DNA from: a bacterium
Lineage (GTDB): Bacteria > Patescibacteriota > Minisyncoccia > Sungbacterales > HO2-52-23
Direction: 5' to 3'
Length of the DNA stretch: 50,241 nt
Assembly: GCA_030697705.1 (NCBI GenBank)
Contig: JAUYPE010000018.1
Location: forward strand, 1 to 50,241
Below the pieces are notes generated by a model, which was given only the letters and a program-made list of their open reading frames with translations, had not been told where the DNA came from and searched no databases. Numbering within the stretch: position 1 is the first letter of the stretch; every line of letters starts with the position of its first letter. This document shows, piece after piece, positions 1,009 through 17,916 of the stretch. Both the position numbers and the translations under genes were made by a program.

Positions 1009-1950
1009 ATGATGAGGATTCCCTCCATCGACTACCGTGCACATCCGGCGTACCGTTATGCACCTACGATTCGCGGTCGCTACGAGGCAATGCGCATATT
1101 TCTGCCGATGTTTTTTGGGGCGCTCCGGCAGCGTATGCGCGTGCGGCCAAACATTTGTACCGATGGGTGTGAATTGGGGCGGAATGGAGTTGTTGCCTAC
1201 CGCATAGCTCCCGAAACCATAGCTACGCTACGCGGATATGCGGAGCCCTATATCAGCCAAATCCTCAAAAACAAGGATGAAAAAGGAGTAAGTATTTTTA
1301 AAGAGAAGGTTGTGCAGGTTCCAGCGCGCAAGTCCCCGGAGTTTTTTCAGGCAGTTGCCGGTTTGCTGGACGGGCTCGGTATCATCCGCCGCGCGGAGCA
1401 CTATCGCGGTTATCCATTGCGTCTGACAAACCTCGCTGTGCAGGTGGGAGATCCAGAGGATTCTGACTGGCGCAATCATTTTAAGGATGTCGGTGTCGCC
1501 GACCCGCCAACGGCTTACTATCATATTGATGGGAGTCTTGGCCATATGAAGGCGCTCATCTATTTGACCGAGGTTGGCGAGGAGAATGGGCCGTTTTGTT
1601 ATGTGCCGGGGAGTAACACCGTGCTTGGCGTGTGGGAGCATGCAATTCGCTATGCCAATGATAAGGCGAAGACGGACAGTTGTGACCCCGAGCGCCGCAA
1701 AATTTTTGCCGCACTGCCGCGCGCGTTCCAAAAAAAATCGGAATTCGGCAACGATATGCGAGAGGGGTTTAATGCTCTGCTCAAGAATGAGTATAAGATT
1801 CTTTCCGCGCGGGACGGCAATCTCTTTTTATTTGACAACAACATCTTGCACCGCGGCGGGATGGTCGCTCAAGGTCGGCGCATTATTCTCCAGATAAATT
1901 TCCGGCCGCTCAACGACGGCTATCGCAAGGGTTCCGATTTTCAAATGTAA
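1009..1950 (+). CDS. Fe(II)/2-oxoglutarate dioxygenase, PhyH-like (paralog 1, most divergent)
   Basis: YYHID...KALIYLTEV...NGPFCYVPGS...FDNNILHRGG...RIILQ give an HxD...H triad plus distal Arg; first in-frame ATG at 1009. Confidence 0.75.
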   Translation: MMRIPSIDYRAHPAYRYAPTIRGRYEAMRIFLPMFFGALRQRMRVRPNICTDGCELGRNGVVAYRIAPETIATLRGYAEPYISQILKNKDEKGVSIFKEKVVQVPARKSPEFFQAVAGLLDGLGIIRRAEHYRGYPLRLTNLAVQVGDPEDSDWRNHFKDVGVADPPTAYYHIDGSLGHMKALIYLTEVGEENGPFCYVPGSNTVLGVWEHAIRYANDKAKTDSCDPERRKIFAALPRAFQKKSEFGNDMREGFNALLKNEYKILSARDGNLFLFDNNILHRGGMVAQGRRIILQINFRPLNDGYRKGSDFQM

Positions 1951-1952
1951 TT

Positions 1953-2104
1953 ACTTATAGGACTTACGCACTCTATCGTTTTTTGCTGTCATTCCCCTGA
2001 AAAGGGGAATCCAGATGATGCGGTATGGCTCTGGATTCCCGCTTTTGCGGGAATGACAAGAGAAGAAACATGAGAATATGCTGAAGTGCGTAAGTCCTAA
2101 CTTA
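1953..2104. mobile_element. MITE-like element: 15-bp terminal inverted repeats, 5-bp flanking direct repeat, internal pair of ATTCCC-N-GGGAAT palindromes
   Basis: TAGGACTTACGCACT (1958-1972) and AGTGCGTAAGTCCTA (2085-2099) are a perfect inverted repeat; ACTTA at 1953-1957 and 2100-2104; inner inverted arms at 1987-2015 and 2030-2058. Confidence 0.8.
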
Positions 2105-2168
2105 ATTACTATTCCTCACCGGTGCGGATAGAGTATTATGTTGTGGGGGTACTCGATGCTGTTTGGTT

Positions 2169-3980
2169 ATGACACGACTGATCCGATATCATGCGGCGGC
2201 TCTTCTGCTCTGTCTGCTTGTGGGTGCCGTTTACGCAAGTCATCATTTTTTTATCCCGCGCTTTTTGGACGGATCGCGGGAGGTTTATGAGCCGCTGACG
2301 CGCACGGCGTATTTTGATGAGGCGGTTTTTTACGGGCCGCGGGCAAACGCCGCCTATCAAGGACCACTCGCGGTGGGGGATACCGGTGTGGCGGAGTATC
2401 GTACCGTGCCGACACCGTTCTCACTGGTGAATCCGGCACTGCTTGGCGTGCTTGGGCGTCTGCTCGGTTCAGTACGCCGTGCGTTTATCGCTTCTGATTT
2501 TATATTCCCTGCGGCAATTTTTTTGCTGGTTTATTTAATTTTCTGCAAATTGGCGGTGTCGCGAAGTGTTGCTCTGACAGGAAGCGCGATTTTTTTGTTC
2601 GTGCCGAAAATCGGCGTGTCGCTCCCGCCGCTTTCGCTTGCACATCTTGGAGAAATAAGCCATACGCTCTTTCCGTTTCTTCTACGCACCGATGTCCTTC
2701 CGTTTACGCAATTTGAGGAGCCAAAAATAACTTTTTTATTTTTTACGCTTGCCTTTTATTGTGTTTATCGCGCACTCAACCGCGAGGAGCCGCTCATGAT
2801 TGTCGCGGCGGGCGTAACTTTCGGTTTATTATTTTATACATATCTCTACGATTGGGCATTGTTTCTAGTGGCGCTGTCCCTGCTTGCCGTGTGGTTTATC
2901 GCGCGTAAAGAATATTCCCGCGCAAAAAAAATAGCCATCGTCATCGGTATCGGCCTGCTCGTTTCGGTGCCGTATTGGATTCATTTGGCGGAGGTGCGGC
3001 ACGCGGTACAGGCGCGTGACATCCTCGCGCGCGTGGGTGGGGAGTTTTCCCATCGTTTCCGATTTGCGACGGTTTGGAAGAGCTATCTCCGCACCGCCGT
3101 ACTGGCGGGACTTCTGTTTTCTACCCTGCGCAAAAAACATCTGCTCGCGGCGGCATTTATCTCTTCATTTCTCTTTGCTTATGTTGTCGCAGTAAACGCG
3201 CAGGTGGTGATAGGGTTTAATATACAACCCGACCATTGGTACCGGACGCAATTCTTCCCCATTACCGCCGCGCTTGTGATTCTTCTGTTTTTAGCTTGTC
3301 AACGATGGCGACACCGGGTGAGCGAATTGGTACGTGTTGGGGCGGCGGCGTGTTTTCTGGGATTTTTTCTTGTCACCGCGCTCATGGGGCAGTATGCCTA
3401 TAGTGTGGCGCGCGCCCGCGAGTACGCGCTTCCCCTTGCTCGTGCCAAAAGTTATGCGTGGCTGAATGAGTATACGCCACCGGGTTCCGTCGTGGGTTCA
3501 ATTTCGTTTGAGACGACAAACGATGTGGAACTCCTGACCCATAATCGCGTCTACTTGCCGATGTTCAATACAGCCGTCCCGTCAAAGGAGGTGTGGGAAC
3601 GGTTTTTATTTCTTGCAAAAATTTACCGTGTGCCGCCCGAACGGCTTGCCGATACTATCCGCAACGGTCCGACAGCATTCTTTCTTTTTATGGAAGAATA
3701 CGGAAGCCGCGGATTTGATAGCGCGTTTGGGAAGTATGAGCGCAAGGTTCCCGAAAGTATCGCGGCGGAAGAAATTCGTGTCTATAAAGAAATGGCTCGC
3801 CATCCGCTTACACTGCCGCCACCGCATCAATTGGATTATCTTTATGTGAGCGATCGCGAGCGCGTGATTGGCGAAGATCCTGCTGGTGTGTTTCCTCATC
3901 TCAAAAAAATATACGATCGCGGTGGGATCATCATCTATGAAATCATTCCACCCATTGCGGCGGGGGCGGAAAAGCTCTAG
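2169..3980 (+). CDS. Polytopic membrane protein, possibly a GT-C-type glycosyltransferase
   Basis: About 600 aa with more than 10 hydrophobic segments, an acidic FDE motif in the first loop and a soluble C-terminal domain (WLNEYTPPGSVV...LDYLYV...IYEI); glycan-locus context. Confidence 0.55.
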   Translation: MTRLIRYHAAALLLCLLVGAVYASHHFFIPRFLDGSREVYEPLTRTAYFDEAVFYGPRANAAYQGPLAVGDTGVAEYRTVPTPFSLVNPALLGVLGRLLGSVRRAFIASDFIFPAAIFLLVYLIFCKLAVSRSVALTGSAIFLFVPKIGVSLPPLSLAHLGEISHTLFPFLLRTDVLPFTQFEEPKITFLFFTLAFYCVYRALNREEPLMIVAAGVTFGLLFYTYLYDWALFLVALSLLAVWFIARKEYSRAKKIAIVIGIGLLVSVPYWIHLAEVRHAVQARDILARVGGEFSHRFRFATVWKSYLRTAVLAGLLFSTLRKKHLLAAAFISSFLFAYVVAVNAQVVIGFNIQPDHWYRTQFFPITAALVILLFLACQRWRHRVSELVRVGAAACFLGFFLVTALMGQYAYSVARAREYALPLARAKSYAWLNEYTPPGSVVGSISFETTNDVELLTHNRVYLPMFNTAVPSKEVWERFLFLAKIYRVPPERLADTIRNGPTAFFLFMEEYGSRGFDSAFGKYERKVPESIAAEEIRVYKEMARHPLTLPPPHQLDYLYVSDRERVIGEDPAGVFPHLKKIYDRGGIIIYEIIPPIAAGAEKL

Positions 3981-3994
3981 TATTGCCCTATCCT

Positions 3995-4387
3995 ATGCGT
4001 ATTATCCGCAATAAAAAATCGTTGTTTGTGGATGCGCGGGGGGCGATTACGAATCTCTTGGACGAGGGTGTCGTTATCAAGAGTATCTTGCTGACCTCAT
4101 CGGTCTCCGGTGCGATTCGAGCAAATCATTACCACAAGAAAGATGCCCATTATGTCTATCTTGTCTCCGGAAAAATGGAGTGGCGTGAACGGTCGGCTGG
4201 GGATATGGGTGAGGGGGTCACTGAAATCTTACAGCCGGGCGATATGGTGTTCACGCCGCCGATGACCGAGCATGCGTCGTGCGCGCTTGCACCCTCGGTC
4301 TTTCTCGCGTTTGCCACCGAGCCGCGGAGTCGTGAGGAGTACGAAGCGGATACCGTGCGCGTATCGCTTATTGAAGAAAAAGCATAA
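3995..4387 (+). CDS. Cupin-domain protein (sugar isomerase/epimerase-like)
   Basis: DARG, GAIRANHYHKK, YLVSG and PGDMVFTPPMTEHA cupin motifs. Confidence 0.75.
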   Translation: MRIIRNKKSLFVDARGAITNLLDEGVVIKSILLTSSVSGAIRANHYHKKDAHYVYLVSGKMEWRERSAGDMGEGVTEILQPGDMVFTPPMTEHASCALAPSVFLAFATEPRSREEYEADTVRVSLIEEKA

Positions 4388-4388
4388 A

Positions 4389-4547
4389 AGACCTACTGCA
4401 CAATAACCTTTCTGCTACGATGATGATTTTTCGGCTGCAAACAACTCATCGTTCGTCAATGAATACCACGTATTCACCTCCTCACGCTTCGTTGTTTTCG
4501 CACGAAAAATCATCATCTCGCTACGAAAATTATTGTGCAGTAGGTCT
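4389..4547. repeat. 159-bp palindromic intergenic element (ERIC/RPE-like), copy 1
   Basis: Perfect 18-bp terminal inverted repeat AGACCTACTGCACAATAA; inner 15-bp inverted repeat 4419-4433/4503-4517; central TGAATAC-cac-GTATTCA hairpin; second copy at 49255. Confidence 0.9.
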
Positions 4548-4565
4548 AACGAATTTTTCTTGACC

Positions 4566-5558
4566 ATGATGCGCCGTCTGCTTGCCCATGTCTATCATCT
4601 GGGAGTCGTGCATCCCTACTGCACGGTGCGGGCGTGTTTTCCCGTGTGGTATGGGGTGGCGAATAAAGAGGGAAGGATGCTCTTTGAAAAAAATAAGCCG
4701 AAACTCAATCCCGTGCAGGAGCGCATCGTTGCGGATCTCAATCACAGCGGCATCGCCGTCTCGTCGCTGGAAGATCTCTTTCCGGGAGATTCACCGTTGG
4801 TGATATTGCAGGAAGCGGCACGCCGTTATGAGCGCGACGGGGTAGTCAAAAGCGGCAAACAATTCTTGCAGTTTTTCTGGGATCTGAAGCCGACGCTTGA
4901 TCTTGAAAATCCCTTTATCAAAATGTCGCTTGACGCACGTGTTCTTGATACCGTTAACTCCTATCTTCATATGTGGGCGAAGTTTTATTTTTTTTCGCTC
5001 AACCGGACGGTGCCGATTGCCGCGGGTGCCAAGCCACAGCAATCCCAGCGCTGGCATCGCGATCCGGAAGATAAAAAACTGTGTAAAATATTTTTGTATT
5101 TGAATGATGTGGACGCGACAGCGGGGCCGTTTATGTATGTGAAAGGATCGCATTACGGCGGACGATGGCGGCATCTTTTCAGGCAACGGCCGCCGCACGG
5201 AAGCCGCGCGCCCTACGGCGAGGTGGAGCGGCGCGTTCCATCCGGTGATATTCTTGCGGCTACGGGTCGTGCGGGGACACTTATTTTTTGCGATACCAGC
5301 GGACTTCACAAGGGCGGGTATGCCACTGCCAATGAGCGTATCATGTATACCGGCGTGTTTGCCTCCGCGGCGTCGTACAAGTACACCGCCAATCCCGCGA
5401 TTGTCTATCCGGACGGCGATAAACAAAAAAACACCCGCGTTGATTTAAGCCCCGCGGCACGGTATGCGCTGGTGCCGTCCCGACAGAGTATGGTTCAGAA
5501 AATAGAAAAGCGCATCAAGGCGGGCGGAAAAGACGAGATGATGCCCGCCGAGGGATAA
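4566..5558 (+). CDS. Fe(II)/2-oxoglutarate dioxygenase, PhyH-like (paralog 2)
   Basis: SQRWHRDPED, KIFLYLNDVD, GPFMYVKGS, DTSGLHKGG, ERIM; the upstream TTG lies inside the repeat, so ATG 4566 is preferred. Confidence 0.8.
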   Translation: MMRRLLAHVYHLGVVHPYCTVRACFPVWYGVANKEGRMLFEKNKPKLNPVQERIVADLNHSGIAVSSLEDLFPGDSPLVILQEAARRYERDGVVKSGKQFLQFFWDLKPTLDLENPFIKMSLDARVLDTVNSYLHMWAKFYFFSLNRTVPIAAGAKPQQSQRWHRDPEDKKLCKIFLYLNDVDATAGPFMYVKGSHYGGRWRHLFRQRPPHGSRAPYGEVERRVPSGDILAATGRAGTLIFCDTSGLHKGGYATANERIMYTGVFASAASYKYTANPAIVYPDGDKQKNTRVDLSPAARYALVPSRQSMVQKIEKRIKAGGKDEMMPAEG

Positions 5559-5568
5559 TATTTTTTCT

Positions 5569-6558
5569 ATGATTCTTCGCTTCGGACTTATCGGTCTCGG
5601 CTATTTCGGTAAAAATTATCTTCGCCTTCTCCAACAGATGGAGGGAGTTGAGCTTGTCGCCGTCGCCAATCACGAACCAGAGGCGTTTGTCGCGCATGCC
5701 GCTCTTCTGCCGCCTGCTATCAAACGGTACCAAGATGCCGCAGAACTTATCGCCGATCCGGCAATTGATGCGATTGTTATTGCCACACCCGCATCAACGC
5801 ATGTGGCGCTTGCGCAACAGGCATTGGAAGCTGGCAAACATGCGCTCATTGAAAAACCGATGGTGCGTTCATCCGTTGAGGCGGAAGAACTGGCGCGTGC
5901 GGTGAAAGAGTCGGGCAAAATTCTTATGGTCGGACATCAATATATCTATCACGACTCCATTCGCCATTTAAAAAAAGAGCTAGAATCGGGACGGCTTGGC
6001 CGCGTGGCTTTCGTCTTTGCCGAGCATTTTTATTTCGGTCCCGTCCGGAATGATATCCCTCTCTTATGGGAGACGGCGACGCATGAACTCGCCTTACTGG
6101 ACTATGTTTTTGGATCGCGTGAGATAACAAGCGTAAGCGGCAAAAAGATCTCGGTTGTCGGTGGCGGACAGGATGACTTTATCCATACCGCGATTTCATT
6201 TGCCGACGAGATGGTTTTGAATGTGTCCGTCTCGTGGTTTATGCCACAAAAAATTCGGCGCATGGCGTTTATTGGAACGAAAGGGATCGCTCTTTTTGAT
6301 GACCAGCTTGCCAAACAAAAACTTAAATTCATCATGCAGAAGTACCCCGCGACATGTGAGGGAGATACCGCTTCAACGTGGTTTGGCGCGGCGGAGGAAA
6401 AAATAATTATCCCAGATGTCGCCGCTCACGAGCCACTCCGGAATGAAGTTGAGCATTTCATCTCGTGCATCCGCTCCGGTGCCGAGCCCCTCACCGGCAT
6501 CGCACACGGCATGCGCATTACGCACCTTCTAGAGGAGATTGATAGCCGTCTTGGATAG
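5569..6558 (+). CDS. Gfo/Idh/MocA-family oxidoreductase
   Basis: GLIGLGYFG, IATPASTH, GKHALIEKP, LMVGH, EPLRNEVEHF. Confidence 0.9.
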   Translation: MILRFGLIGLGYFGKNYLRLLQQMEGVELVAVANHEPEAFVAHAALLPPAIKRYQDAAELIADPAIDAIVIATPASTHVALAQQALEAGKHALIEKPMVRSSVEAEELARAVKESGKILMVGHQYIYHDSIRHLKKELESGRLGRVAFVFAEHFYFGPVRNDIPLLWETATHELALLDYVFGSREITSVSGKKISVVGGGQDDFIHTAISFADEMVLNVSVSWFMPQKIRRMAFIGTKGIALFDDQLAKQKLKFIMQKYPATCEGDTASTWFGAAEEKIIIPDVAAHEPLRNEVEHFISCIRSGAEPLTGIAHGMRITHLLEEIDSRLG

Positions 6559-6603
6559 TGAGTGAGACCATGATAAACTTTCCCCTGTTGTGTCTGTTAC
6601 GAT

Positions 6604-6633
6604 TTGGCGCGTTATCTCGTTCTATGCTATACT
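6604..6633 (+). promoter_or_regulatory. sigma70-type promoter, near-leaderless
   Basis: TTGGCG-18 nt-TATACT with TG extension; ATG follows at 6643. Confidence 0.5.
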
Positions 6634-6642
6634 GGCAATGCT

Positions 6643-7194
6643 ATGGAACCCATTAAAAAATCAAAAAACATCTCGCTCATCGTTGGTCTGGCAATTCCCG
6701 TCCTCATGATCGTGGCGGTTGCGGGGAGTATCTATATCCCGCAGTTTTTTGCGCCCAAACCGCAGTATGACTTTTTGTATACAAATGACTATTATGGGGG
6801 ACCTTATGGTGCCCAGCTCTATGAGGTGCGGAATGGAAGGGTTGTCAAAAATCCTCCGGTACTACCATTACAGGATTCTAGTGCGCCACCTTATGTCGCC
6901 AAGCCCGTTCCGGCTCCCGAGCCGCAGTTGTTTCGCTATGATGTAAAGAACGATATGAGCAAGGAAGTAGCGTTTGAAGAGGCGCAGAACTTTTCGCTCA
7001 CTACCGATCAAAAATCACCGGATGGTTTTGAGTTTCGCGATGGCTCGCGCGACGGCGACTTTTTTCCCTTTGGCAGAGGGTATGATTATAATGTGAAATA
7101 TCTCATTGGACACGGCATAAGCCGAAAGCTCAATATCTCCGTCAATCAATATCAGTATAATCCCGTTCGCTTTCTTGGGTGGATTAAGAACTAA
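6643..7194 (+). CDS. Hypothetical protein with N-terminal membrane anchor
   Basis: One TM segment (ISLIVGLAIPVLMIVAVAGSIYI) then a soluble domain ending FLGWI. Confidence 0.7.
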   Translation: MEPIKKSKNISLIVGLAIPVLMIVAVAGSIYIPQFFAPKPQYDFLYTNDYYGGPYGAQLYEVRNGRVVKNPPVLPLQDSSAPPYVAKPVPAPEPQLFRYDVKNDMSKEVAFEEAQNFSLTTDQKSPDGFEFRDGSRDGDFFPFGRGYDYNVKYLIGHGISRKLNISVNQYQYNPVRFLGWIKN

Positions 7195-7209
7195 GGCCCA
7201 CTCATAACA

Positions 7210-8241: not shown

Positions 8242-8251
8242 TCCTAATATT

Positions 8252-9022
8252 ATGTACGCGAAGCTCTCGATTATTATTCCCGCATACAACGAGGAAAAGC
8301 GTCTGCCCCTCACACTGGCGCGGCTTTTTGCTGTTATGGGTGAGCACTATAAAGGCCATTATGAGGTGATCATTGCGGATGACGGCAGTACCGACGAAAC
8401 CGCGCGAGAAGCGGAGAAGGAGGCCGCCCGGCACTCCGAGCTTCGCTTGGTATCGTTTGCAAAGAATCGGGGACGCGGTGCAGTGGTGCGCGACAGTGTG
8501 CTCAAAGAGGTGTCGGGGGATTTTATTTTGCAGATGGACGCGGACGGCAGTACGGAGATGGAAGCGATTCCGCGCTTTGTTTCGTATCTTACGGAACACG
8601 CGGAGGTTGATATACTCACCGGGAGCCGGACGATTGCGGGAGCAAAGATTCTTACGCCCCAGCCGTTTCTGCGTGTCGCGCTGGGGAATTGTTTTCTTGG
8701 TGCCGCAAAAATCATGTTCGGCTGGCCGATGGTTGATCGGATTAATGGATTCAAAATGTTCCGTCGCGCCGCCGCATTAGATAGTTATGCCCATCAATTC
8801 AGCGACCATTACATTGCGGAGGCGGAGATTGTTTTTGTCGCCGAGCGGCGCGGCTGGCGGGTGTGGGAACTGCCGATTCTGTGGACGGATTACCGCGACT
8901 CGCGCATAAAACCTCTTCGCGATTCATGGCGTTCGGCGGCGGGCATGGTGCGGATTCTTATCAATAATCGGCGGGGGCTTTATTCGCAGAATCTGCCCAA
9001 CCATCATGCACCGGCACATTAA
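8252..9022 (+). CDS. GT2 glycosyltransferase, polyprenyl-phosphate glucose/mannose synthase-like
   Basis: LSIIIPAYNEE, DDGSTDET, NRGRG, MDADG, GSR, GFKMF, ELPILW. Confidence 0.9.
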   Translation: MYAKLSIIIPAYNEEKRLPLTLARLFAVMGEHYKGHYEVIIADDGSTDETAREAEKEAARHSELRLVSFAKNRGRGAVVRDSVLKEVSGDFILQMDADGSTEMEAIPRFVSYLTEHAEVDILTGSRTIAGAKILTPQPFLRVALGNCFLGAAKIMFGWPMVDRINGFKMFRRAAALDSYAHQFSDHYIAEAEIVFVAERRGWRVWELPILWTDYRDSRIKPLRDSWRSAAGMVRILINNRRGLYSQNLPNHHAPAH

Positions 9023-9452
9023 TAGAAAAAAACAGTCACCTATTCTCTCTATTCCAAAAAGCGAAATTGATGCTGCGTTGGCGCAAAGCCCCGCCGAGGG
9101 CAAGCGGATGCTGGAGCCGATTCGCACGCTGACGACCGCGGCGGGCATGCCACTTAATATTCTTGAGGACTCGCATACGAATAATCTCGCCGAAGTTCAC
9201 AGAACGATAAGCGATCTGTGGTTGTGCTTGGAAGGGGAAGCGACTTTTATCCACGGCGGTGCATTAGTGGAGCCGCGGGTAAAAGAAAAAAACGGCGTAC
9301 GCAATGAAAACGAACTTCTCGCCGCATCAATTCATGGCGGTACCGAAACCATCATGCATCCGGGCGACTGGCTGTGGATTCCCGCGGGTACGCCCCATCA
9401 GCATCAAGCGATCGGTACCGCTCGTCTTGCTATTATAAAAATACCCGCATGA
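9006..9452 (+). CDS. Cupin-domain protein
   Basis: EVH...DLWLCLEGEA...PGDWLWIPAGTPHQ. Confidence 0.7.
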   Translation: MHRHINRKKQSPILSIPKSEIDAALAQSPAEGKRMLEPIRTLTTAAGMPLNILEDSHTNNLAEVHRTISDLWLCLEGEATFIHGGALVEPRVKEKNGVRNENELLAASIHGGTETIMHPGDWLWIPAGTPHQHQAIGTARLAIIKIPA

Positions 9453-9778
9453 AAAAAAGAGCGCCGCATCCGGCTCTTCGTCTGCTCAAAAAAATACCAA
9501 GAGGAAAGGTGGTGACATATAAAGAAATAGCGCGCGCGTGTAAAACTTTCCCGCGGGTGGTCGGCAGAATTATGGCGGGCAACGCCGATCCAGTCGACTA
9601 TCCCTGCTACAAAGTCGTCGCCTCAAATGGTGCGCTTACCGGCTACAGCGCGCCGGGTGGATTAATAACAAAACGCCAACTTCTTGCCAGCGATGGCGTG
9701 CAGTTTTTGGGCGGGCGCGTTCATCCCGCATGCTTTCACCGCTTTAGCCGGATGGAGATTTCAGAAGCGCAAGAATAG
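9449..9778 (+). CDS. O6-alkylguanine-DNA alkyltransferase (MGMT/Ogt) C-terminal-domain protein
   Basis: KIPRGKVVTYKEIA, RVVG, PCYKVV, GYS, KRQLLASDG; ATGA overlap with the cupin stop. Confidence 0.85.
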   Translation: MKKRAPHPALRLLKKIPRGKVVTYKEIARACKTFPRVVGRIMAGNADPVDYPCYKVVASNGALTGYSAPGGLITKRQLLASDGVQFLGGRVHPACFHRFSRMEISEAQE

Positions 9779-10813: not shown

Positions 10814-11233
10814 ATGAACGAAAAAAAGATAGAGATTTTTAAGCCGGAGGCGTGGGAGCGGGATTGGGGTCAGGAGATTCTCCTGGGGCACTCAAAAGGT
10901 AAGTACACACTCAAGATGCTGGTAAGGAAAGCTGGTGCCAAGGGGGGGCTTCAATATCACCGGGTAAAAGACGAGATTGGTTATCTTTTCTCCGGAGAAA
11001 TTTTACTTCGCTATGATAAGGGCGACGGAAAACTCACCGAAGTCAAAATGACGCCGGGTCAGAGCGTGCATATTCCGGCGGGATGCGTGCATCAGGAGGA
11101 GGCGATTACGGACTCTATTATGTTTGAGGCATCCAATCCGGTTTTTGACGACCGCGTGCGGATGGAGGAGAAGTATGGCTTGAAAATTGAAGGAGGAGGG
11201 CTTCCCACGACGACGGAGCCGAGAATTGAATAG
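10814..11233 (+). CDS. Cupin-domain protein (type II mannose-6-phosphate isomerase cupin-like)
   Basis: ERDWGQE, LQYHRVKDE, GQSVHIPAGCVH, EASNP..DDRVR. Confidence 0.8.
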   Translation: MNEKKIEIFKPEAWERDWGQEILLGHSKGKYTLKMLVRKAGAKGGLQYHRVKDEIGYLFSGEILLRYDKGDGKLTEVKMTPGQSVHIPAGCVHQEEAITDSIMFEASNPVFDDRVRMEEKYGLKIEGGGLPTTTEPRIE

Positions 11234-11636: not shown

Positions 11637-11669
11637 AATAATATCGACTGTTTTAGGCGGCTGGCATGC

Positions 11670-11707: not shown

Positions 11708-11744
11708 GCTGTTTTAGAGGAGTATTATATCGGATTGTAATCAA

Positions 11745-12119: not shown

Positions 12120-12225
12120 GGCAGTTCCTTTCGTGAGATTGTGGTAAGAACGAGATGACAATTGTAGCATATATGATTGTATGCGTCAAGTATTCCGGCT
12201 TATAAAAATAAGGTATGCTCGTGAT

Positions 12226-13011
12226 ATGGAAAACAAGGGATTGCGAACATTTTATGATAAGGTCTATACCAAAGGCGAGTGGAAGCACTACACCTCGCTT
12301 ATGTTTTCGGGTGACAAGGTGCCGCTGGCGAAGGATGCGGTGTTGAAGCTCGTCTCATGGAAAGGTAAAGAGGTGTTAGACGCCGGATGTGGGACGGGAG
12401 AGATGCCGTACCTTATAGCTCAAAAAGGAGCGAAACGCGTGGTGGGGATTGATTATGCCTCTTCCGCCATTAAAGAAGCGGAGAAGAATTATCATCTGCC
12501 GAACTTATCGTTCCTCTGCGCCGATCTGCAAAAAGTTAAGGGTACCTTTGACATTATCGTTTCATTAGGAACGATTGAGCATATTGACGATCCGCTTACA
12601 GCGTTGCGGCGGCTGAAAAAACTTCTCAAGCCGGGCGGTTCGCTTGTTGTTACCTGTCCTAACTGGACGAATCCGCGCGGATATGTTTTGATGGCGTTAC
12701 GCATTTTATTTGACGCAAAAATCACGCTCGCCGATTTGCATTATCTTACACCGGTTGAGATGGAGGCGTGGGCGAAAAAATTGGGTATGTCGCTACAATG
12801 GAAAACGGTTGAGCAGGAGTGGGGGCACGGCGAGAAGATGATTCGCGATCTGGCGCGCCGTCTACCCAATGTGGTGCGAGATTCTAAGTTGCTGACGGAC
12901 GTACGGCGCGTTAAGGAATTCGTAAAATGGCTGGAGAAGCACGCGCTTCCCTTTGAGCGGGAAACGCGCCACGGGGGCGCGGTGGGGGTGTATCATTTCC
13001 GACTGCAGTAG
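12226..13011 (+). CDS. Class I SAM-dependent methyltransferase
   Basis: VLDAGCGTG, VVGIDY, FDIIVSLGTIEH, LKPGGSL. Confidence 0.9.
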   Translation: MENKGLRTFYDKVYTKGEWKHYTSLMFSGDKVPLAKDAVLKLVSWKGKEVLDAGCGTGEMPYLIAQKGAKRVVGIDYASSAIKEAEKNYHLPNLSFLCADLQKVKGTFDIIVSLGTIEHIDDPLTALRRLKKLLKPGGSLVVTCPNWTNPRGYVLMALRILFDAKITLADLHYLTPVEMEAWAKKLGMSLQWKTVEQEWGHGEKMIRDLARRLPNVVRDSKLLTDVRRVKEFVKWLEKHALPFERETRHGGAVGVYHFRLQ

Positions 13012-13013
13012 TT

Positions 13014-13042
13014 TTGCCTTTTGTTTGTGCTTATGGTATGAT
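13014..13042 (+). promoter_or_regulatory. sigma70-type promoter
   Basis: TTGCCT-17 nt-TATGAT with TG extension. Confidence 0.6.
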
Positions 13043-13104
13043 ACTAGCGTTGATCATGTTCTTTTCCATAGAGTGATTGTTTTTTCTGAAAAAAGGGAGG
13101 CGGT

Positions 13105-13668
13105 ATGAGTGCTGATGCCGAGAGTGTCTTCCGGGAAAATCTATCCCTATTTCTTAAAATGGCGGAGGGATACGGTGCTTTATCCCGTGAATATGAAGCG
13201 TTGGAGGATGCATTCTTAGCGTGGCGCGAGCGGTATCTAAGTATCTCCGCAAAAGTAAATGATTTTAGTTTTCGATTCCATGAAGGGGTTATGTCGTTCA
13301 TCGCGCGGAAAGTGGAAAGGGAGGGATACGCCCTTGATGAATATTTAGACGAACCGGGCGATACGGCGTTTGTTGAGTTAGCGAAGGAGGCGAGGGACGA
13401 TTTTCTACGGGTGCCTGATAATAACCATGAGTTTAAGGTCATGAGCTTGGATCTATCCGCGATGCTTGATGAGACCATCCGCCCAGTTTTAGAGCGTTGT
13501 CCCGCTGGTACTCAAGCGATCTCGAGAATCTATTCCGTTGATCTTGCGGCAAATCGTTTCCTAATTCCAGAAATTGAAACACAAGAATCAAATGATTCTT
13601 TTGGTTTTTTTATAACAGCCCTCCTTCAGCGAGAGAATGCAGGCGATGTTACGGAGCATCATGGTTAA
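13105..13668 (+). CDS. Hypothetical acidic protein
   Basis: AAAGGGAGG SD; has its own promoter and terminator; no recognised motif. Confidence 0.65.
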   Translation: MSADAESVFRENLSLFLKMAEGYGALSREYEALEDAFLAWRERYLSISAKVNDFSFRFHEGVMSFIARKVEREGYALDEYLDEPGDTAFVELAKEARDDFLRVPDNNHEFKVMSLDLSAMLDETIRPVLERCPAGTQAISRIYSVDLAANRFLIPEIETQESNDSFGFFITALLQRENAGDVTEHHG

Positions 13669-13694
13669 TCGTACCCCGCCGCAGTAAGTTGTAC

Positions 13695-13727
13695 CGCTCC
13701 GAGCCATGATGGTTCGGAGCGTTTTTT
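13695..13727 (+). terminator. Intrinsic terminator
   Basis: CGCTCCGAGCC-atgat-GGTTCGGAGCG followed by T6. Confidence 0.8.
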
Positions 13728-13762
13728 GAAACCGTAAGTTTATTCCACTTGTTCTATCCTTC

Positions 13763-14434
13763 ATGAAGGTGCTGATTCTGGCAGGTGGATTCGGAACACG
13801 GCTGGCGAATATTGCTGGGAGCCGTCCTAAGCCCTTGGTTGAGGTGGCGGGGCGGTCTATTTTGGAGCGGCAAATTTCTCTGCTCCGTGAACATGGTTTT
13901 GGCGATATCCGTTTGAGTTTGCACCACAAGGCGGATCAGATTATCTCCTTCTGTGATGCGCGCTGGCCGGGAAGTATTGAGTATATCGTGGAGCCGGAAC
14001 CGCTGGGAACGGGCGGAGGAATCAAGTACGCGAGCCGCGATTGGTGCGAGTCGTTTATGGTTTTGAACGGTGATATTTTGAGCGATCTTGATGTGGCGAT
14101 GTTTGCGGCATCGCATCCCAATGCGATCGGATGCGCGTATCAGGAAGATGCGCGCGGTTTCGGACTGGTGGACATTGGGGAGGGAGTAGTGCGCGCATTT
14201 CACGAGAAGCCGACGGAGCCGGTCTCAGGCTATATCAATGCGGGTTATTATTTGCTGACCCCCGAAGCGATACACAGTGTCGCCGCGGATCGGTTTATGA
14301 TTGAGACCGAAGTTTTCCCCCGCCTCGCGGCAGCAGGCAAGCTTTCCGCATTTGTCCATACTGGCTACTGGATTGACGTGGGTACGGAAGACCGTTTCTG
14401 GAAGGCGAACCGCGATCATGAAAAGGTTATATAA
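13763..14434 (+). CDS. Sugar-1-phosphate nucleotidyltransferase (NTP_transferase; HddC/PtmE/ManC-like)
   Basis: ILAGGFGTRL, PKPL, EPEPLGTGGG, VLNGD, EKP, INAGYY, YWIDVGT. Confidence 0.9.
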   Translation: MKVLILAGGFGTRLANIAGSRPKPLVEVAGRSILERQISLLREHGFGDIRLSLHHKADQIISFCDARWPGSIEYIVEPEPLGTGGGIKYASRDWCESFMVLNGDILSDLDVAMFAASHPNAIGCAYQEDARGFGLVDIGEGVVRAFHEKPTEPVSGYINAGYYLLTPEAIHSVAADRFMIETEVFPRLAAAGKLSAFVHTGYWIDVGTEDRFWKANRDHEKVI

Positions 14435-14482
14435 CAGGAACTTTGTACGCTCTCGCGGAAGAGTAGGGACACTCACCTTTCT

Positions 14483-15445
14483 ATGCCTATCATACGAACA
14501 ATGAAAGACAATATATTTCGCACCTTTTGCCGTGCCCGGAATTTCCATCCGGTCTGGTATCATGTGCTCAACCGCGAGGCGAAAAAAAAATGGCGCGCGC
14601 ATCAGTCCGATACCCCCGGTGTACCTATCCAAGAGCTCATCTCATCACTTCACCGCGATGGTGTTGCCGTTACCGATGTAGCAACTCTTTTTTCCGAAGA
14701 GCTGTTTGATGCAGCGCGGCGGTTTGCCACGGAATCTTTGGCGCGTCCGGAAATACAGGAGGAGATAAAACGGCATGAGCGCATGATCATTGAGCGTGTC
14801 AAGAGTGGGGGACAGCGCAAGGGGGCAAAAAAATATCTCAAGGATTTTATCGTTGAACCGTACGGGTCAACGACCGATGAAAGAATACCTGATATCAAAA
14901 ATCCCTTTATCCGGATGAATCTTGACGAGCGTGTTATTCGTATCGCTGGTTCGTATATGGGGATTGCGCCCAAGTTGCGGGGGTTTTCCCTCCGTCAGAC
15001 GCTTCCGGTTCCTGCGGGTGCCGCGGAATATTTTTCTCAACGCTGGCACCGCGATCCGGAAGACAGAAAGATGCTCAAAATGTTTATTTATATGACGGAT
15101 GTCTTGGACGAGCAGTCAGGTCCTTTTATTTATATTAAGGGATCCCAACCCGGCGGGGTGCGCGGGAATCTGTTTCCCCAGCATCCACCAGCCGCAACAT
15201 ACCCGGAAGCGGGAGCGGTGGAGAAGGTAGTTCCACGGGAGTTGATGAAGGTGTGTCTGGGGCGCGCTGGCACCGTTGTTTTTGCTGATACCAGTGGGTT
15301 GCATAAGGGGGGATACACGATCTCTGCGCCGCGTCTTATGTATACGGGAACATTTTATTCCCTTGCCTCGCTTACGCGTCATCATCTTGCCGTGCGGGAC
15401 GACGTATCTGCCTTGTCCCCACTTGCGCGCTATGCGCTGGAATAG
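14483..15445 (+). CDS. Fe(II)/2-oxoglutarate dioxygenase, PhyH-like (paralog 3)
   Basis: SQRWHRDPED, KMFIYMTDV, GPFIYIKGS, DTSGLHKGG, RLM; the start could be 14501. Confidence 0.8.
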   Translation: MPIIRTMKDNIFRTFCRARNFHPVWYHVLNREAKKKWRAHQSDTPGVPIQELISSLHRDGVAVTDVATLFSEELFDAARRFATESLARPEIQEEIKRHERMIIERVKSGGQRKGAKKYLKDFIVEPYGSTTDERIPDIKNPFIRMNLDERVIRIAGSYMGIAPKLRGFSLRQTLPVPAGAAEYFSQRWHRDPEDRKMLKMFIYMTDVLDEQSGPFIYIKGSQPGGVRGNLFPQHPPAATYPEAGAVEKVVPRELMKVCLGRAGTVVFADTSGLHKGGYTISAPRLMYTGTFYSLASLTRHHLAVRDDVSALSPLARYALE

Positions 15446-15489
15446 CGAAGAGCGCGGTGGAAGAGGCGCGGCGGGAACCGCACCGGACG

Positions 15490-16872
15490 ATGAAAACAAT
15501 TCTCATAAAATTTGACAACAGTTTTTTTGTGCGCAATTTTTTGCGTACTGATGCTTTTCGGATGCTTGCCGAGGTGGAGGATACGAGAATTGTCTTTCTT
15601 GCCCCTGCGGAAAAAATAACCCACTATCGCCGTGAATTTTCATCCCCGCGCGTTTTTTTTGAAACGCTTCCCGAAACCAAACATTTCTTGAGTGAGCGTT
15701 TTTTTAAATTTATTGAGACGGCGAGCATTCATTCCCATACGGTCTCCATGATGCATCGTACCGAATACGCGCGGACCGCGGGGCAGAAGCTCTGGATCCG
15801 GCGCGCGGTGTTGTATGCTATTCGCCGCGGTCTGTGGCGATTGGGACGGTACCGGCTCTGGCGCGCATGCATTCGCAGGGTATATTTTTTGTTGCCGAGC
15901 CGTACATTCAGTTGTTTTTTTGATGCGTACCAGCCGGATCTCGTCTTTTCTCCTTCTATGGCGTATACGGACGGTCGTATGCTGAAAGAAGCGCGGCATC
16001 GCGGGGTTAAGACTATCGGTATGGTCTTAAGCTGGGACAATCTCTACAGCAAAACGATGCTTCGCGTGTTTTCCGATATACTGGTGGTGCATACCGACGA
16101 GGTCAGGGATCAGGCGGTGAAATTAGGGGACTATCCCCGCGAGCGTGTTGTCGTTTCCGGTATTCCTCAATACGACTGTTATTTCAGGAGAACCGATATC
16201 ATACCGCGCGAGCAATTTATCCAGTCAATCGGTGGTGACCCCCGCAAAAAACTTATCGTCTATGCGGTTTCCGGAAAAGCGGGATTACACATTGATTATG
16301 CTATCGTAAAACTTCTGCAAGAAGCTATTCGGCGTGGAGAGATTAAAACGCCCGCCCAACTCCTCTTGCGCGCCCATCCGCGGTATGATTTCTCGCCAGT
16401 AAAAATAAAGCAGATGCGAGAGGAGTATGGTTGTCTGGTACAGCCAGCGATGGGACATGTGGGAGAAAGCAGGGATAATTGGGAGTTTGATGCGGAGGCG
16501 GTCTCGTTTCTTGCCAATACACTCGCGCATGCGGATGTCGTGGTCGCCCTGTACACGACATTTTTTATTGAAGCGGCGCTCTTCAACAAGCCGCTGATCG
16601 CCGTCGGTTTTGATGCCGAGGAGATGGATTATTGGAATTCCGCCCGCCATTTTTTTGAGTGGGATCATCTGCGCGAGCTTGACAGATTGGGGGGTATTTG
16701 GCGCGTTGAGAGCCGTGAAGAATTGATCCGCGCGGTTAACACAGGTCTTGAAAATCCAAAGCATCTTGAAGAAGGGCGGCGGCGGATCACTCTCCACCAA
16801 AGCCAGTTTACCGACGGGAAGTCGGGCGAGCGTCTCGGTCGCATCATTCTCGCGGTGCTTTCTTCCTCATAA
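15490..16872 (+). CDS. GT-B protein, CDP-glycerol glycerophosphotransferase/sialyltransferase-like (paralog A)
   Basis: LSWDNLYSK, SGIPQYD, LLRAHP, ADVVV..TT..IEAALFNKP, DGKSGER; paralogous to 26033-27409. Confidence 0.6.
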   Translation: MKTILIKFDNSFFVRNFLRTDAFRMLAEVEDTRIVFLAPAEKITHYRREFSSPRVFFETLPETKHFLSERFFKFIETASIHSHTVSMMHRTEYARTAGQKLWIRRAVLYAIRRGLWRLGRYRLWRACIRRVYFLLPSRTFSCFFDAYQPDLVFSPSMAYTDGRMLKEARHRGVKTIGMVLSWDNLYSKTMLRVFSDILVVHTDEVRDQAVKLGDYPRERVVVSGIPQYDCYFRRTDIIPREQFIQSIGGDPRKKLIVYAVSGKAGLHIDYAIVKLLQEAIRRGEIKTPAQLLLRAHPRYDFSPVKIKQMREEYGCLVQPAMGHVGESRDNWEFDAEAVSFLANTLAHADVVVALYTTFFIEAALFNKPLIAVGFDAEEMDYWNSARHFFEWDHLRELDRLGGIWRVESREELIRAVNTGLENPKHLEEGRRRITLHQSQFTDGKSGERLGRIILAVLSSS

Positions 16873-16950
16873 GGCAGGATGAAACCCTTGCCCTGCCGCG
16901 TTCGTTGAAAAAGTGCGAGTATATGGTCAGTTTATCAAGATACTACGAAT

Positions 16951-17916
16951 ATGTTTTCTCGTATCACGACCAGTGTATCCATGCGCAGTGCGCACCTCTT
17001 TTTTTGGGTTCGCTCAAGAAAACCCGTGTGGTTATATGCGGTGAACGGAAAAAGCAGGCGCGCAAAGAAAAAAAACCCGACTGCGCTCTCCGTCGTGCAA
17101 CAGCGCATCGTGACGGATCTTGGGCGCGACGGCATTGCCGTAGCGCATCTGGACGAATTTTTCCCCGCACGCGGGCTTCTGGAAAATTTTCAACAATACG
17201 TCGCGGATGGCAGGGCGCGCGCGGAGACACGAACGCATAAATCGTTTCTTAAAAATCTGTGGGATGCGGTGCCGCTTGTTGACTTCGGGAATCCCTTTTT
17301 CGTGCTGGCACTGGACGATGCTATTCTTGCGACCGTCAACGAGTATATGGGACTGTGGTCGTATTTTTTTTATCTGACGCTCAATGTGACCACACCCGTG
17401 TTGGAGGGGAGCGAGGCGGTTCAGTCCCAGCGGTGGCATGGAGATCCGGAGGATAGAAAGATGTGCAAGGTGTTTTTGTATCTGACGGATGTGGATGAGG
17501 GATCGGGACCCTTTACGTATGTGCGGGGAAGCCAGTCCGGCGGGCGCTGGCGGCATCTGTTTCGGGAGCAGTCGCCGCGCGGTATCATGCCGCCGGAGCG
17601 TCCTATTAAGGAGATCGTGCCTTCCACCGATATTATGACCTGCACAGGTAAGGCGGGAACCATTATCTTTTGCGATACGAGTGGTTATCATAGGGGAGGA
17701 TATGCCACGAAAAAAGAACGGATTATGCTCACGATGGGATACTGCTCGGGCGCAAGTCCCTATCCCATGCGCGTTCGTTTCTCCGAACTTTTGCGGGAGC
17801 AGAGAGAATACCGGGCATTAAGTCCTGCGGCGCGCCATGCCCTTACCTTTGCGCCCGGACATACCACTTCTTATTTTTTTAGAAAAATAAAGCCCCGCTT
17901 CAAATACGGTGCCTAG
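16951..17916 (+). CDS. Fe(II)/2-oxoglutarate dioxygenase, PhyH-like (paralog 4)
   Basis: SQRWHGDPED, KVFLYLTDVD, GPFTYVRGS, DTSGYHRGG, ERIM. Confidence 0.8.
   Translation: MFSRITTSVSMRSAHLFFWVRSRKPVWLYAVNGKSRRAKKKNPTALSVVQQRIVTDLGRDGIAVAHLDEFFPARGLLENFQQYVADGRARAETRTHKSFLKNLWDAVPLVDFGNPFFVLALDDAILATVNEYMGLWSYFFYLTLNVTTPVLEGSEAVQSQRWHGDPEDRKMCKVFLYLTDVDEGSGPFTYVRGSQSGGRWRHLFREQSPRGIMPPERPIKEIVPSTDIMTCTGKAGTIIFCDTSGYHRGGYATKKERIMLTMGYCSGASPYPMRVRFSELLREQREYRALSPAARHALTFAPGHTTSYFFRKIKPRFKYGA

Follow-up and report, generated by a model that had tools for sequence, protein, structure and literature searches.

Putative Fe(II)/2-oxoglutarate oxygenases of the PhyH type linked to a TagB-like glycosyltransferase in a nonulosonic-acid glycan locus of a CPR bacterium

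Introduction

Bacterial sialic-acid-like sugars (nonulosonic acids) are varied by N-acylation, O-acetylation and O-methylation, and we know of no 2-oxoglutarate (2OG)-dependent oxidative step in the described pathways for neuraminic (Neu), legionaminic (Leg) or pseudaminic (Pse) acid. Functional analogues of such a step are KdoO, the Kdo 3-hydroxylase of Burkholderia and Yersinia lipopolysaccharide, which carries out an O2-dependent hydroxylation of a 2-keto-3-deoxy-ulosonic acid residue, and animal CMAH, the Rieske-type hydroxylase of CMP-Neu5Ac. Oxygenases of the phytanoyl-CoA dioxygenase (PhyH) type are an established enzyme class, and their action on sugars is known from antibiotic pathways. 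Here, we analyze a 50,241-nucleotide stretch of DNA (contig JAUYPE010000018.1 of assembly GCA_030697705.1, positions 1 to 50,241; the whole stretch is called the window) from a Sungbacterales member of the candidate phyla radiation (CPR), a large nonulosonic-acid glycan locus that encodes four PhyH-like Fe(II)/2OG oxygenases.

Among the described sugar-modifying enzymes of this type is HygX (structure entries 4XC9, 4XCA, 4XCB and 4ZPI), reported to convert hygromycin C into the orthoester hygromycin B; it is described with a variant HxG...E triad (HxG...E-x3-H) and an N-terminal insert that is mobile and shuts over the substrate (PMC13374393). On the side of sugar transfer, BFO_1060, Tanf_01245 and TFUB4_00887 of Tannerella forsythia are described as TagB-like proteins, and their deletion is reported to remove the terminal Pse or Leg derivative from the O-glycan of this organism (PMC5420450).

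Three of the four oxygenases of the window belong to a distinct subfamily, and the fourth is a divergent protein of another one. What is new is the distinct subfamily with its conserved N-terminal extension and its consistent linkage to the ulosonic acid synthase NeuB and to a TagB-like glycosyltransferase of the GT-B fold (GT-B) in CPR surface-glycan loci.

Four PhyH-like oxygenases encoded in one glycan locus

The window belongs to a CPR genome of 858,288 bases in 30 contigs, which is 96% complete. A profile search of the whole genome yielded exactly four oxygenase-family matches, all of them inside the window:

1009-1950, + strand: PhyH-D (P0001), divergent PhyH-like Fe(II)/2OG oxygenase of a separate, rare subfamily (Pfam PhyH 22.5 bits; own triad and Arg)
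4566-5558, + strand: PhyH-A (P0002), main-subfamily Fe(II)/2OG oxygenase (Pfam PhyH 27.2 bits; AF2 model, Foldseek, VIA)
14483-15445, + strand: PhyH-B (P0003), main-subfamily oxygenase (40-43% identity to P0002; Pfam PhyH 12.4 bits, below the cut-off)
16951-17916, + strand: PhyH-C (P0004), main-subfamily oxygenase (Pfam PhyH 24.5 bits)

These are the open reading frames (ORFs) starting at 1009, 4566, 14483 and 16951 in which a first-pass annotation, made from the letters of this DNA, had seen an HxD...H iron triad and a distal Arg. The residues in question, H164, D166, H248 and R258 (P0002 numbering), are invariant across a four-way alignment. In both subfamilies the Arg stands ten positions after the distal His (R258 = H248+10; R291 = H281+10), and an Arg about ten residues past the distal His binds the C5 carboxylate of 2OG in the PhyH superfamily. 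The same picture emerged from larger alignments: 33 main-subfamily sequences show no variation in the triad, the Arg and some 25 other positions, among them W28 and N33 of the N-terminal extension, and H172/D174/H281/R291 are invariant in a 20-sequence alignment of the P0001 subfamily.

P0002, P0003 and P0004 share the motifs SQRWHxDPED, K..K.F.Y..DV, GPF.Y..GS, DTSG.H.GG and LSPxARxAL, exactly as had been noticed before, and P0004 is 43% identical to P0002. The earlier description of four paralogs holds in so far as all proteins are PhyH-like, but the fourth member, P0001, shows 21% identity to P0002, lacks the shared motifs and falls into a separate subfamily. Three of the four proteins (P0002, P0004 and P0001) pass the gathering cut-off of Pfam PhyH (PF05721), which is 22 bits; P0003 remains below this value but keeps all catalytic residues. 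A Pfam-A scan at E<=1 detected no family other than PhyH in the four oxygenases, no NCBIfam model matched any of them, and matches in the ESM Atlas were restricted to PhyH-labelled or unnamed clusters. On sequence grounds the four genes encode PhyH-superfamily Fe(II)/2OG oxygenases, for which 2OG/O2-coupled activity is predicted.

Two more specific assignments were rejected. A Kdo-hydroxylase family exists in Pfam, and the scan mentioned above gave PhyH alone. Halogenases of the SyrB2/WelO5 type carry Ala or Gly in place of the triad carboxylate (HxA/G); the Asp is invariant in our alignments and therefore argues against halogenase-like proteins, in agreement with the first-pass annotation.

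The first 46 residues of the four proteins have a net charge of +6 to +11 and contain 6-7 aromatic residues. The extensions had been described as basic or hydrophobic; they are basic and rich in aromatic residues, but hydrophobic anchors are missing, as none of the four proteins contains a transmembrane segment and the highest 19-residue Kyte-Doolittle mean is below 1.4.

The stretch is contained in two DNA sequencing runs of one groundwater study, from which it may itself derive, so that this DNA is present in groundwater metagenomes. No RNA run containing the stretch was found in the sequencing-run search.

Conserved neighbourhood of the oxygenase genes

For the analysis of gene context we used the best 78 loci from 469 confirmed stretches in one-genome-per-species contigs; 31 of these 78 loci have full 10-kb flanks. 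Three types of analysis were performed: (a) BLAST labelling with the window proteins over 1,090 called genes (greedy longest-ORF calling), (b) a search with profile hidden Markov models (HMMs) on all stop-to-stop ORFs of the 78 loci and (c) a Pfam tally of otherwise unlabelled genes at most two positions away from the oxygenase. Greedy longest-ORF calls overlook some genes, for example NeuB in locus L039, and the counts were repeated with the profile HMMs.

The most constant neighbour is the GT-B, which the HMMs detected in 62 of the 78 loci and in 30 of the 31 with full flanks. NeuB was present in 38 loci (23 of the full-flank ones), the cytidine monophosphate (CMP)-sugar synthetase in 36 (22) and the NeuC-type epimerase in 11 (8), and at least one of these three was found in 46 loci (26). 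BLAST labelling of the 78 loci gave 38 with the TagF-like GT-B, 27 with its paralog type, 33 with NeuB, 23-24 with the CMP synthetase and 27 with methyltransferases. The distances are short: the GT-B lies within 3 kb of the oxygenase in 47 of the 78 loci and within 500 bp in 22, and a methyltransferase lies within these distances in 20 and 10 loci, respectively. Unlabelled neighbours numbered 158, of which 141 were scanned after leaving out 15 ORFs shorter than 130 aa and the two longest ones; they comprise 24 class-I methyltransferases, 21 GT4 and 6 GT9 glycosyltransferases, 13 Wzx-type flippases, 7 TylF, 5 FkbM and 4 PMT_2 proteins. The first-pass annotation had named rfbB and a nucleotidyltransferase among the neighbours, but the tightest partner is the GT-B, and a homolog of the NTP_transferase at 13763-14434 occurs in only one of the 78 related loci.

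As a baseline we used 300 other genomes drawn evenly from the phylum. Of these, 45 have NeuB and 27 the GT-B, and a single one has the oxygenase family (E<=1e-10). Enrichment near nonulosonate genes, as proposed for checking in the earlier annotation, is thus seen when NeuB within 10 kb in the full-flank loci (23/31) is set against NeuB anywhere in a phylum genome (45/300). In the sole oxygenase-positive baseline genome the GT-B is 2 kb and NeuB 4.4 kb away from the oxygenase gene. NeuB was present in 25 of the 27 genomes with the GT-B vs 20 of the 273 without it; related genomes are not independent in this comparison, and several families are involved. Three baseline genomes (G270, G125 and G138) carry a full-length GT-B without an oxygenase, and NeuB lies 0.2-20 kb from the GT-B there, so that GT-B and NeuB form the core and the oxygenase is an accessory. 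Five oxygenase-bearing genomes of 0.6-1.1 Mb contain exactly one NeuB each, inside the oxygenase locus; four of the five were picked in the knowledge that the locus had NeuB, and the result shows the status as only copy, not an independent frequency.

The subfamily of P0001 has a different environment. Among 135 scanned neighbours (138 minus the three longest) were 9 short-chain dehydrogenase/reductase (SDR) epimerases, 9 acyltransferases with AT3 and SGNH domains, 4 FkbM and 3 Capsule_synth proteins. At least eight of its longer loci have both NeuB and NeuC in the vicinity. A conserved neighbour of about 441 aa in this subfamily was considered as a relative of the GT-B and rejected (hhalign probability 0.1). 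Taken together, the gene context offers good support for the oxygenases as putative glycan-tailoring enzymes.

The partner glycosyltransferase

Two GT-B paralogs are encoded in the window:

15457-16872, + strand: TagB/TagF-like GT-B with RSWDN motif, candidate CMP-nonulosonate transferase (Pfam Glyphos_transf 33.4 bits)
26033-27409, + strand: second GT-B paralog (27% identity to 15457-16872, E 4e-55; 487 bits against the GT-B profile)

The first one is bracketed by P0003 and P0004, as annotated before, and the stop codon of P0003 is located 11 bases ahead of its start. With 33.4 bits vs a cut-off of 22.1 for Glyphos_transf (PF04464) it is a TagB/TagF-type protein. The SWD motif of the first-pass annotation corresponds to W193/D194, which are invariant within RSWDN in the alignment of the GT-B family. 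An AlphaFold2 (AF2) model of this protein (predicted local distance difference test score, pLDDT, 90.6) shows a GT-B fold. Its nearest folds in a VIA comparison are UDP-GlcNAc 2-epimerases and NeuC (Z 20.6-22.4; NeuC 22.4), followed by TarL (20.4) and TagF (19.1); a bacterial polysialyltransferase has a Z of 14.8. A predicted complex of this GT-B with P0003 (score 0.00, mark 0.32) speaks neither for nor against binding.

The likeness to the T. forsythia transferases of Pse and Leg derivatives (PMC5420450) lies in a TagB-like GT-B encoded near a nonulosonate pathway, and both GT-Bs of the window match NF046086, the model of the BFO_1060 family. In contrast to true members, which reach its cut-off of 200 bits, they score 48.4 bits (15457-16872) and 24.9 bits (26033-27409) and are distant relatives at best. 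Many loci have the GT-B directly beside NeuB and CMP synthetase. Given the TagF-type fold family, the weak BFO_1060 match and the frequent co-occurrence with NeuB, nonulosonate transferase is a plausible label for the GT-B, and the "putative NulO transferase" of the earlier annotation was a fair one.

A different contig of this genome carries a tandem array of three more full-length GT-B paralogs (G000:C16:327-5891), which gives five copies in 858 kb.

The main-subfamily paralogs belong to different branches

A maximum-likelihood tree (quick search, SH-aLRT support) was calculated from those 86 of 88 HMM hits that cover at least 230 profile positions, together with the three main-subfamily proteins of the window. 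P0003 is part of a 28-row clade (SH-aLRT 99), in which the nearest GT-B is encoded on the same strand in 21 rows and is often directly adjacent. P0004 is sister to the protein of locus L006 (support 100) in a group with an SH-aLRT of 84, and a methyltransferase gene is directly adjacent (0-7 bp) in six of the other nine rows of this group. The position of P0002 is not resolved in the backbone of the tree. A separate clade of 18 rows (SH-aLRT 99) contains no protein of the window; here 17 rows have their nearest GT-B on the other strand, no more than about 3 kb away, and the recurrent divergent order is NeuB, CMP synthetase, GT-B and then the oxygenase.

As the three main-subfamily paralogs stand in separate branches with differing gene arrangements, a recent expansion is not indicated. 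The earlier term expansion is therefore misleading, and the fourth protein is of another subfamily: judged from the tree, the oxygenase set of the window is an assembly of diverged types.

Structure and nearest characterized enzymes

P0002, the only oxygenase that was modelled, was predicted with AF2 from the 33-sequence alignment (pLDDT 91.3, predicted template modelling score, pTM, 0.91). The model consists of three N-terminal helices (residues 2-42) ahead of a PhyH jelly-roll, and both Foldseek and VIA assign it to the double-stranded beta-helix fold of the PhyH type, so that the structure prediction proposed in the first-pass annotation placed the protein among PhyH-type oxygenases. The best structural match is ColD (Foldseek E 1e-11; VIA Z 18.5, root-mean-square deviation 3.7, 232 residues aligned). 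PrhA, AndA, FtmOx1, SnoN, AsqJ, GriE and KanJ follow in VIA at Z ~16, and EctD and HygX were additionally matched by Foldseek (E 1e-10 to 3e-9). All structural matches cover residues 47-313 only, and no solved structure was found to match the 46-residue basic helical extension.

Sequence comparison with solved structures ranks HygX first (E 1.2e-5; 28 bits over profile positions 125-230) and EctD second (1.5e-3). The closest solved relative by this measure hence acts on a glycoside (PMC13374393). HygX and the other orthosomycin oxygenases (EvdO1, EvdO2, AviO1) resemble the proteins of the window in being PhyH-type enzymes that oxidize a C-H or O-H bond on a glycoside, and the HygX insert over the substrate may parallel the N-terminal extension found here (PMC13374393). 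The differences are considerable: the match is limited to about 105 profile positions at 28 bits, the window proteins have HxD where HygX is described with HxG...E (PMC13374393), SQRWHxDPED and LSPxAR are missing from HygX, and the orthosomycin enzymes belong to actinomycete antibiotic pathways, not to surface-glycan loci. Membership in the HygX-type orthosomycin oxygenases was consequently rejected in view of the canonical HxD and the confined similarity.

KanJ (kanamycin B dioxygenase) and SnoK/SnoN (carbocyclase/epimerase of the nogalamycin sugar) share the fold (Z 16.0 and 16.5) and act on sugar moieties, whereas their identity is 13-18%, their substrates are secondary metabolites and a link to NeuB or a GT-B is missing. 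The archetypes of PF05721, the ectoine hydroxylase EctD and human PhyH, agree with the window proteins in Pfam family, triad plus Arg and fold, but they use small non-sugar substrates, and the N-terminal extension of the window family lies outside the structural matches. To KdoO and CMAH no sequence relationship of the window oxygenases was detected.

Distribution of the oxygenase families

A word-indexed search returned 525 proteins of the main subfamily at E<=1e-3. Their names are either "phytanoyl-CoA dioxygenase family protein" or "hypothetical", and they come from Sungbacteria, Harrisonbacteria and unclassified bacteria. The number of representative clusters was 626 at E<=1e-30, 3,377 at E<=1e-10 and 7,252 at E<=1e-3. 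By record title, the best 78 loci derive overwhelmingly from metagenome-assembled genomes of Patescibacteria/CPR, with seven "uncultured Gammaproteobacteria" and three Acidobacteriota; their oxygenases are 37-51% identical to P0002. With one positive among the 300 other phylum genomes the oxygenase family is sporadic, and three copies in one locus are unusual. The P0001 subfamily is rarer still (21 proteins including P0001 at E<=1e-3, and 89 metagenome stretches).

Distant homologs with 26-30% identity are located on 37 plasmid records of Rhizobium, Sinorhizobium, Azospirillum, Agrobacterium and Methylobacterium. One of them, annotated as hypothetical in Sinorhizobium fredii NXT3 (pSfreNXT3b, L163, locus 8698-9663), is divergently oriented beside nodD2. 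The rhizobial homologs offer culturable hosts in which a related enzyme could be studied.

Oxygen, 2-oxoglutarate and the type of sugar

The window genome encodes a protein of the Glu/Leu/Phe/Val dehydrogenase family (GDH family), a possible source of 2OG as asked for in the first-pass annotation, and an Fe/Mn superoxide dismutase (SOD). A 2025 study reported that groundwater CPR grow under oxic conditions and described 25 CPR genomes with enzymes using O2 directly (PMC12577380). A dependence on O2 and 2OG had been called striking for such a host; with these two genes in the genome and O2-using enzymes of groundwater CPR in that publication it appears less so, and biosynthetic use of O2 in this organism is notable but not unprecedented.

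No DegT/PseC/LegC-type aminotransferase (PF01041) was found in the window genome or in five other oxygenase-bearing genomes (G301-G305), while all 14 control genomes possess one. The Leg and Pse pathways were therefore set aside; their canonical routes appear to be absent, although NeuB and CMP synthetase are present. The missing aminotransferase argues for Neu- or Kdn-type ulosonic acids and against the Leg and Pse types.

Proposed role of the oxygenases and competing explanations

Our preferred reading, which we hold with moderate confidence, is that the oxygenases are cytoplasmic Fe(II)/2OG enzymes and tailor the glycan intermediate on which the TagB-like GT-B of a nonulosonate pathway works. 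It starts from the observed genomic linkage, the intact catalytic residues and the fold. For the substrate, the order of steps, the outcome of the reaction and the function of the N terminus we propose the following. NeuB-type synthases and CMP-sugar synthetases would produce an activated ulosonic acid, which the TagB/TagF-like GT-B would add to the glycan as it grows on the inner side of the membrane. Next, the oxygenases would oxidize a C-H bond in the intermediate, a sugar or glycan, that this GT-B works on, most probably by hydroxylation, and in at least one branch of the family the adjacent S-adenosylmethionine (SAM)-dependent methyltransferase would cap the new hydroxyl. The basic, aromatic-rich helical N terminus is probably a lid over the substrate or a contact to an anionic substrate or the membrane surface. 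Since the main-subfamily paralogs are diverged and each has its own gene arrangement, they probably differ in the position or the intermediate that they attack.

Several observations weigh against this proposal. Of the 31 full-flank loci, 8 gave no NeuB within 10 kb, so the link may be to the glycan of the GT-B in general and not to an ulosonic acid. In the window itself P0001 and P0002 are not adjacent to a GT-B and stand amid genes of the dTDP-sugar type (RmlB-like, cupin, MocA and GT-C). The donor of the GT-B is a prediction: the BFO_1060 match reaches 48 of the 200 bits of the cut-off, and UDP-GlcNAc 2-epimerases and NeuC outrank TarL and TagF by Z-score. Distant relatives on rhizobial plasmids lie outside glycan loci, and, with members of the family carrying the uninformative names given above, the role is read from sequence and context. 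As substrates, the donor sugar, the residue that is transferred and the acceptor fit this context equally well. PhyH-type enzymes also epimerize, deaminate and cyclize, which makes hydroxylation an assumption. No fused or longer form of P0002 (oxygenase-glycosyltransferase or oxygenase-methyltransferase) was found among 5,632 candidates, which is weak evidence. Finally, isocitrate dehydrogenase, haem-copper oxidase and cytochrome bd oxidase were not found in the 96%-complete genome, so that the case for O2 chemistry and for a supply of 2OG consists of the SOD and GDH-family matches.

A bolder version of the proposal, which we put forward tentatively, would make these proteins the first bacterial Fe(II)/2OG nonulosonic-acid hydroxylases. 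They would act on the CMP-activated or freshly transferred Neu- or Kdn-type sugar, either by C-H hydroxylation of the backbone or by conversion of N-acetyl to N-glycolyl, with O-methylation following in some lineages, and GT-B plus oxygenase would constitute a conserved two-gene "transfer and oxidise" module. The Leg derivative of T. forsythia UB4 has been described as "possibly N-glycolyl", and the available text of the two T. forsythia papers names no enzyme for the modification (PMC5378307). Nothing in the present data links the T. forsythia case to the window family.

It is rather unlikely, in our view, that the enzymes act on the acceptor side, i.e. that they oxidize the backbone of the glycan, an intermediate linked to lipid or a sugar other than an ulosonic acid and thereby make or alter a site for the GT-B or a methyltransferase. 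Such a role would be in agreement with the steadier presence of the GT-B (30 of the 31 full-flank loci) compared with NeuB (23) and CMP synthetase (22), with P0001 and P0002 lying among RmlB-like, cupin, MocA and GT-C genes instead of beside NeuB, and with neighbourhoods rich in GT4, GT9, Wzx and methyltransferase genes; a basic N terminus without a transmembrane segment would also suit a lipid-linked substrate at the membrane surface. However, the recurrent order of NeuB, CMP synthetase, GT-B and divergent oxygenase ties many members to the donor pathway, and no feature separates an acceptor from a donor.

A sugar chemistry other than hydroxylation, namely epimerization of the SnoN kind, a KanJ-like oxidative deamination that yields a keto sugar, or oxidative cyclization to an orthoester or acetal on the model of HygX, is unlikely. 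These three enzymes are among the top structural matches (Z ~16 or Foldseek E 1e-8 to 1e-10), HygX is also the best match by sequence, and all three act on sugar moieties according to the entry titles and the literature (PMC13374393). By contrast, the window proteins have a canonical HxD and not the HxG...E variant reported for HygX (PMC13374393), the frequent adjacent O-methyltransferases fit a new hydroxyl better, and the missing DegT-type aminotransferase in the six oxygenase-bearing genomes argues against deamination of an amino sugar.

We consider it very improbable that the oxygenases are unrelated to the glycan, in the sense that they use a small metabolite, lipid or protein as substrate and reside in the locus only as part of a variable, horizontally exchanged region. 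Solved PhyH relatives do act mostly on non-sugar small molecules (ectoine, proline, leucine, meroterpenoids), the distant rhizobial homologs lie outside glycan loci and the window contains an inserted restriction or defence island. But the linkage to GT-B and NeuB recurs in the 78 loci across many lineages and in two clade-specific arrangements, compared with 15% of the phylum genomes having NeuB at all, and hitch-hiking would not preserve adjacency over a divergence down to 37-51% identity to P0002. That the paralogs are catalytically dead scaffolds or regulators, as the score of P0003 under the Pfam cut-off might suggest, can practically be dismissed, because none of the alignments, P0003 and P0001 included, shows a change in His/Asp/His or in the Arg that binds 2OG.

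In terms of the preferred reading, tailoring of a glycan intermediate handled by the GT-B, a conserved oxygenase plus GT-B module would add a tailoring chemistry and predict new sugar structures, and it would mark an O2-requiring biosynthetic step in organisms without respiratory oxidases. If the proteins were nonulosonate hydroxylases, non-respiring CPR would have an O2-dependent means to vary a sialic-acid-like surface coat. The literature search, which did not extend to subscription journals and supplementary files, found nothing joining phytanoyl-CoA dioxygenase with nonulosonic acids or, among the papers listed, nonulosonic acids with CPR, and for 2-oxoglutarate dioxygenases, Patescibacteria and glycosylation it returned only plant and animal work. 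From a practical point of view the family (626 representative clusters at E<=1e-30) is a clonable set of soluble enzymes of about 320 residues that could be assayed on commercial CMP-sialic acids.

Other genes of the window

Two NeuB, two CTP_transf_3 proteins and one NeuC-type epimerase are encoded in the window, in keeping with the nonulosonic-acid glycan locus recognized in the first-pass annotation. The further features are:

1-969, + strand: RmlB-like NDP-sugar 4,6-dehydratase (SDR), cut by the edge of the window (Pfam GDP_Man_Dehyd/Epimerase)
2163-3980, + strand: PMT_2-like (GT-C type) membrane glycosyltransferase (Pfam PMT_2 20 bits, below the cut-off of 26.1)
5569-6558, + strand: GFO/IDH/MocA oxidoreductase directly after PhyH-A (Pfam)
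12181-13011, strand not given: methyltransferase (Pfam)
13763-14434, + strand: sugar-phosphate nucleotidyltransferase directly before PhyH-B (Pfam NTP_transferase 109.7 bits)
17965-18696, + strand: class I SAM methyltransferase directly downstream of PhyH-C (Pfam Methyltransf_11 and related)
18718-20427, + strand: CBS domain fused to a UDP-glucose/GDP-mannose dehydrogenase-family protein (Pfam)
20433-21149, + strand: CMP-nonulosonate synthetase-like protein, CTP_transf_3 (Pfam 77 bits; TIGR03584 PseF 149.5 bits, below the cut-off of 205.7)
21348-22505, + strand: conserved 385-aa protein travelling with the module (no Pfam or NCBIfam match; homologs in 6 of the 78 loci)
24364-25365, + strand: NeuB1, divergent NeuB-family synthase (Pfam NeuB 154 bits; NeuB_NnaB 142.6 bits, below the cut-off of 399.65)
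25341-26033, + strand: HAD phosphatase adjoining NeuB1 (Pfam Hydrolase/HAD_2)
40965-44693, + strand: second nonulosonate set with NeuC-type epimerase, CMP synthetase, a 212-aa ORF and NeuB plus SAF (Pfam Epimerase_2, CTP_transf_3, NeuB, SAF)

The rfbB, oxidoreductase, nucleotidyltransferase and methyltransferase genes mentioned as neighbours in the earlier annotation correspond to 1-969, 5569-6558, 13763-14434 and both 12181-13011 and 17965-18696. The glycan genes are completed by a GT2, which in the gene order falls between the MocA oxidoreductase and the methyltransferases, and by RmlD, a polysaccharide deacetylase and a Wzy_C-TPR protein, which come after the NeuC-type epimerase.

Parts of this arrangement recur elsewhere. 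Homologs of the PMT_2-like protein adjoin oxygenases in L036 and L083, and the CBS-dehydrogenase fusion follows the oxygenase in L010, L018, L050 and L067. L010, L018, L050, L053, L063 and L067 share, as a whole or in part, the gene order oxygenase, methyltransferase, CBS-UDP-sugar dehydrogenase, CMP synthetase, 385-aa protein, divergent NeuB and GT-B (18718-22505 and 24364-27409 in the window). The divergent NeuB1 with its adjoining HAD phosphatase may make an unusual ulosonic acid. The metagenome contig L083, whose P0001 homolog is 92% identical, has the order RmlB, methyltransferase, main-subfamily oxygenase, P0001-type oxygenase and PMT_2-like protein; this differs from the window and indicates that the locus is rearranged between near relatives.

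Three Cupin_2 proteins of 134-148 aa are scattered in the locus (3983-4387, 9006-9452 and 10814-11233), two of them with weak JmjC_2 matches. They were not counted as further oxygenases, as their PDB matches are only generic metal-cupins (oxalate decarboxylase, quercetinase; E 7.6e-5 to 0.06); candidate roles are sugar isomerase, epimerase or another metal enzyme. The segment 30328-32411 encodes a 4'-phosphopantetheinyl transferase and, after it, a protein of 547 aa whose match to FkbH_N is weak (21.4 bits, under the cut-off); FkbH-like homologs recur in 3 of the 78 oxygenase loci. This pair could provide a carrier-protein route to an unusual acyl group on the sugar, for example glyceroyl.

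The region 33443-39932, with a GC content of 43-46% vs about 51% elsewhere, breaks up the glycan locus. Its products are an N6_N4 DNA methylase, a protein with Schlafen/AlbA_2 and HATPase_c_4 domains and a ResIII helicase of 953 aa that includes a TnsA-like endonuclease domain. The region resembles a restriction or defence island that has been inserted. A subtilase gene on the minus strand (22571-23776) and a tRNA-Arg(TCT) (24102-24175) lie midway in the glycan locus, whose genes otherwise run in one direction.

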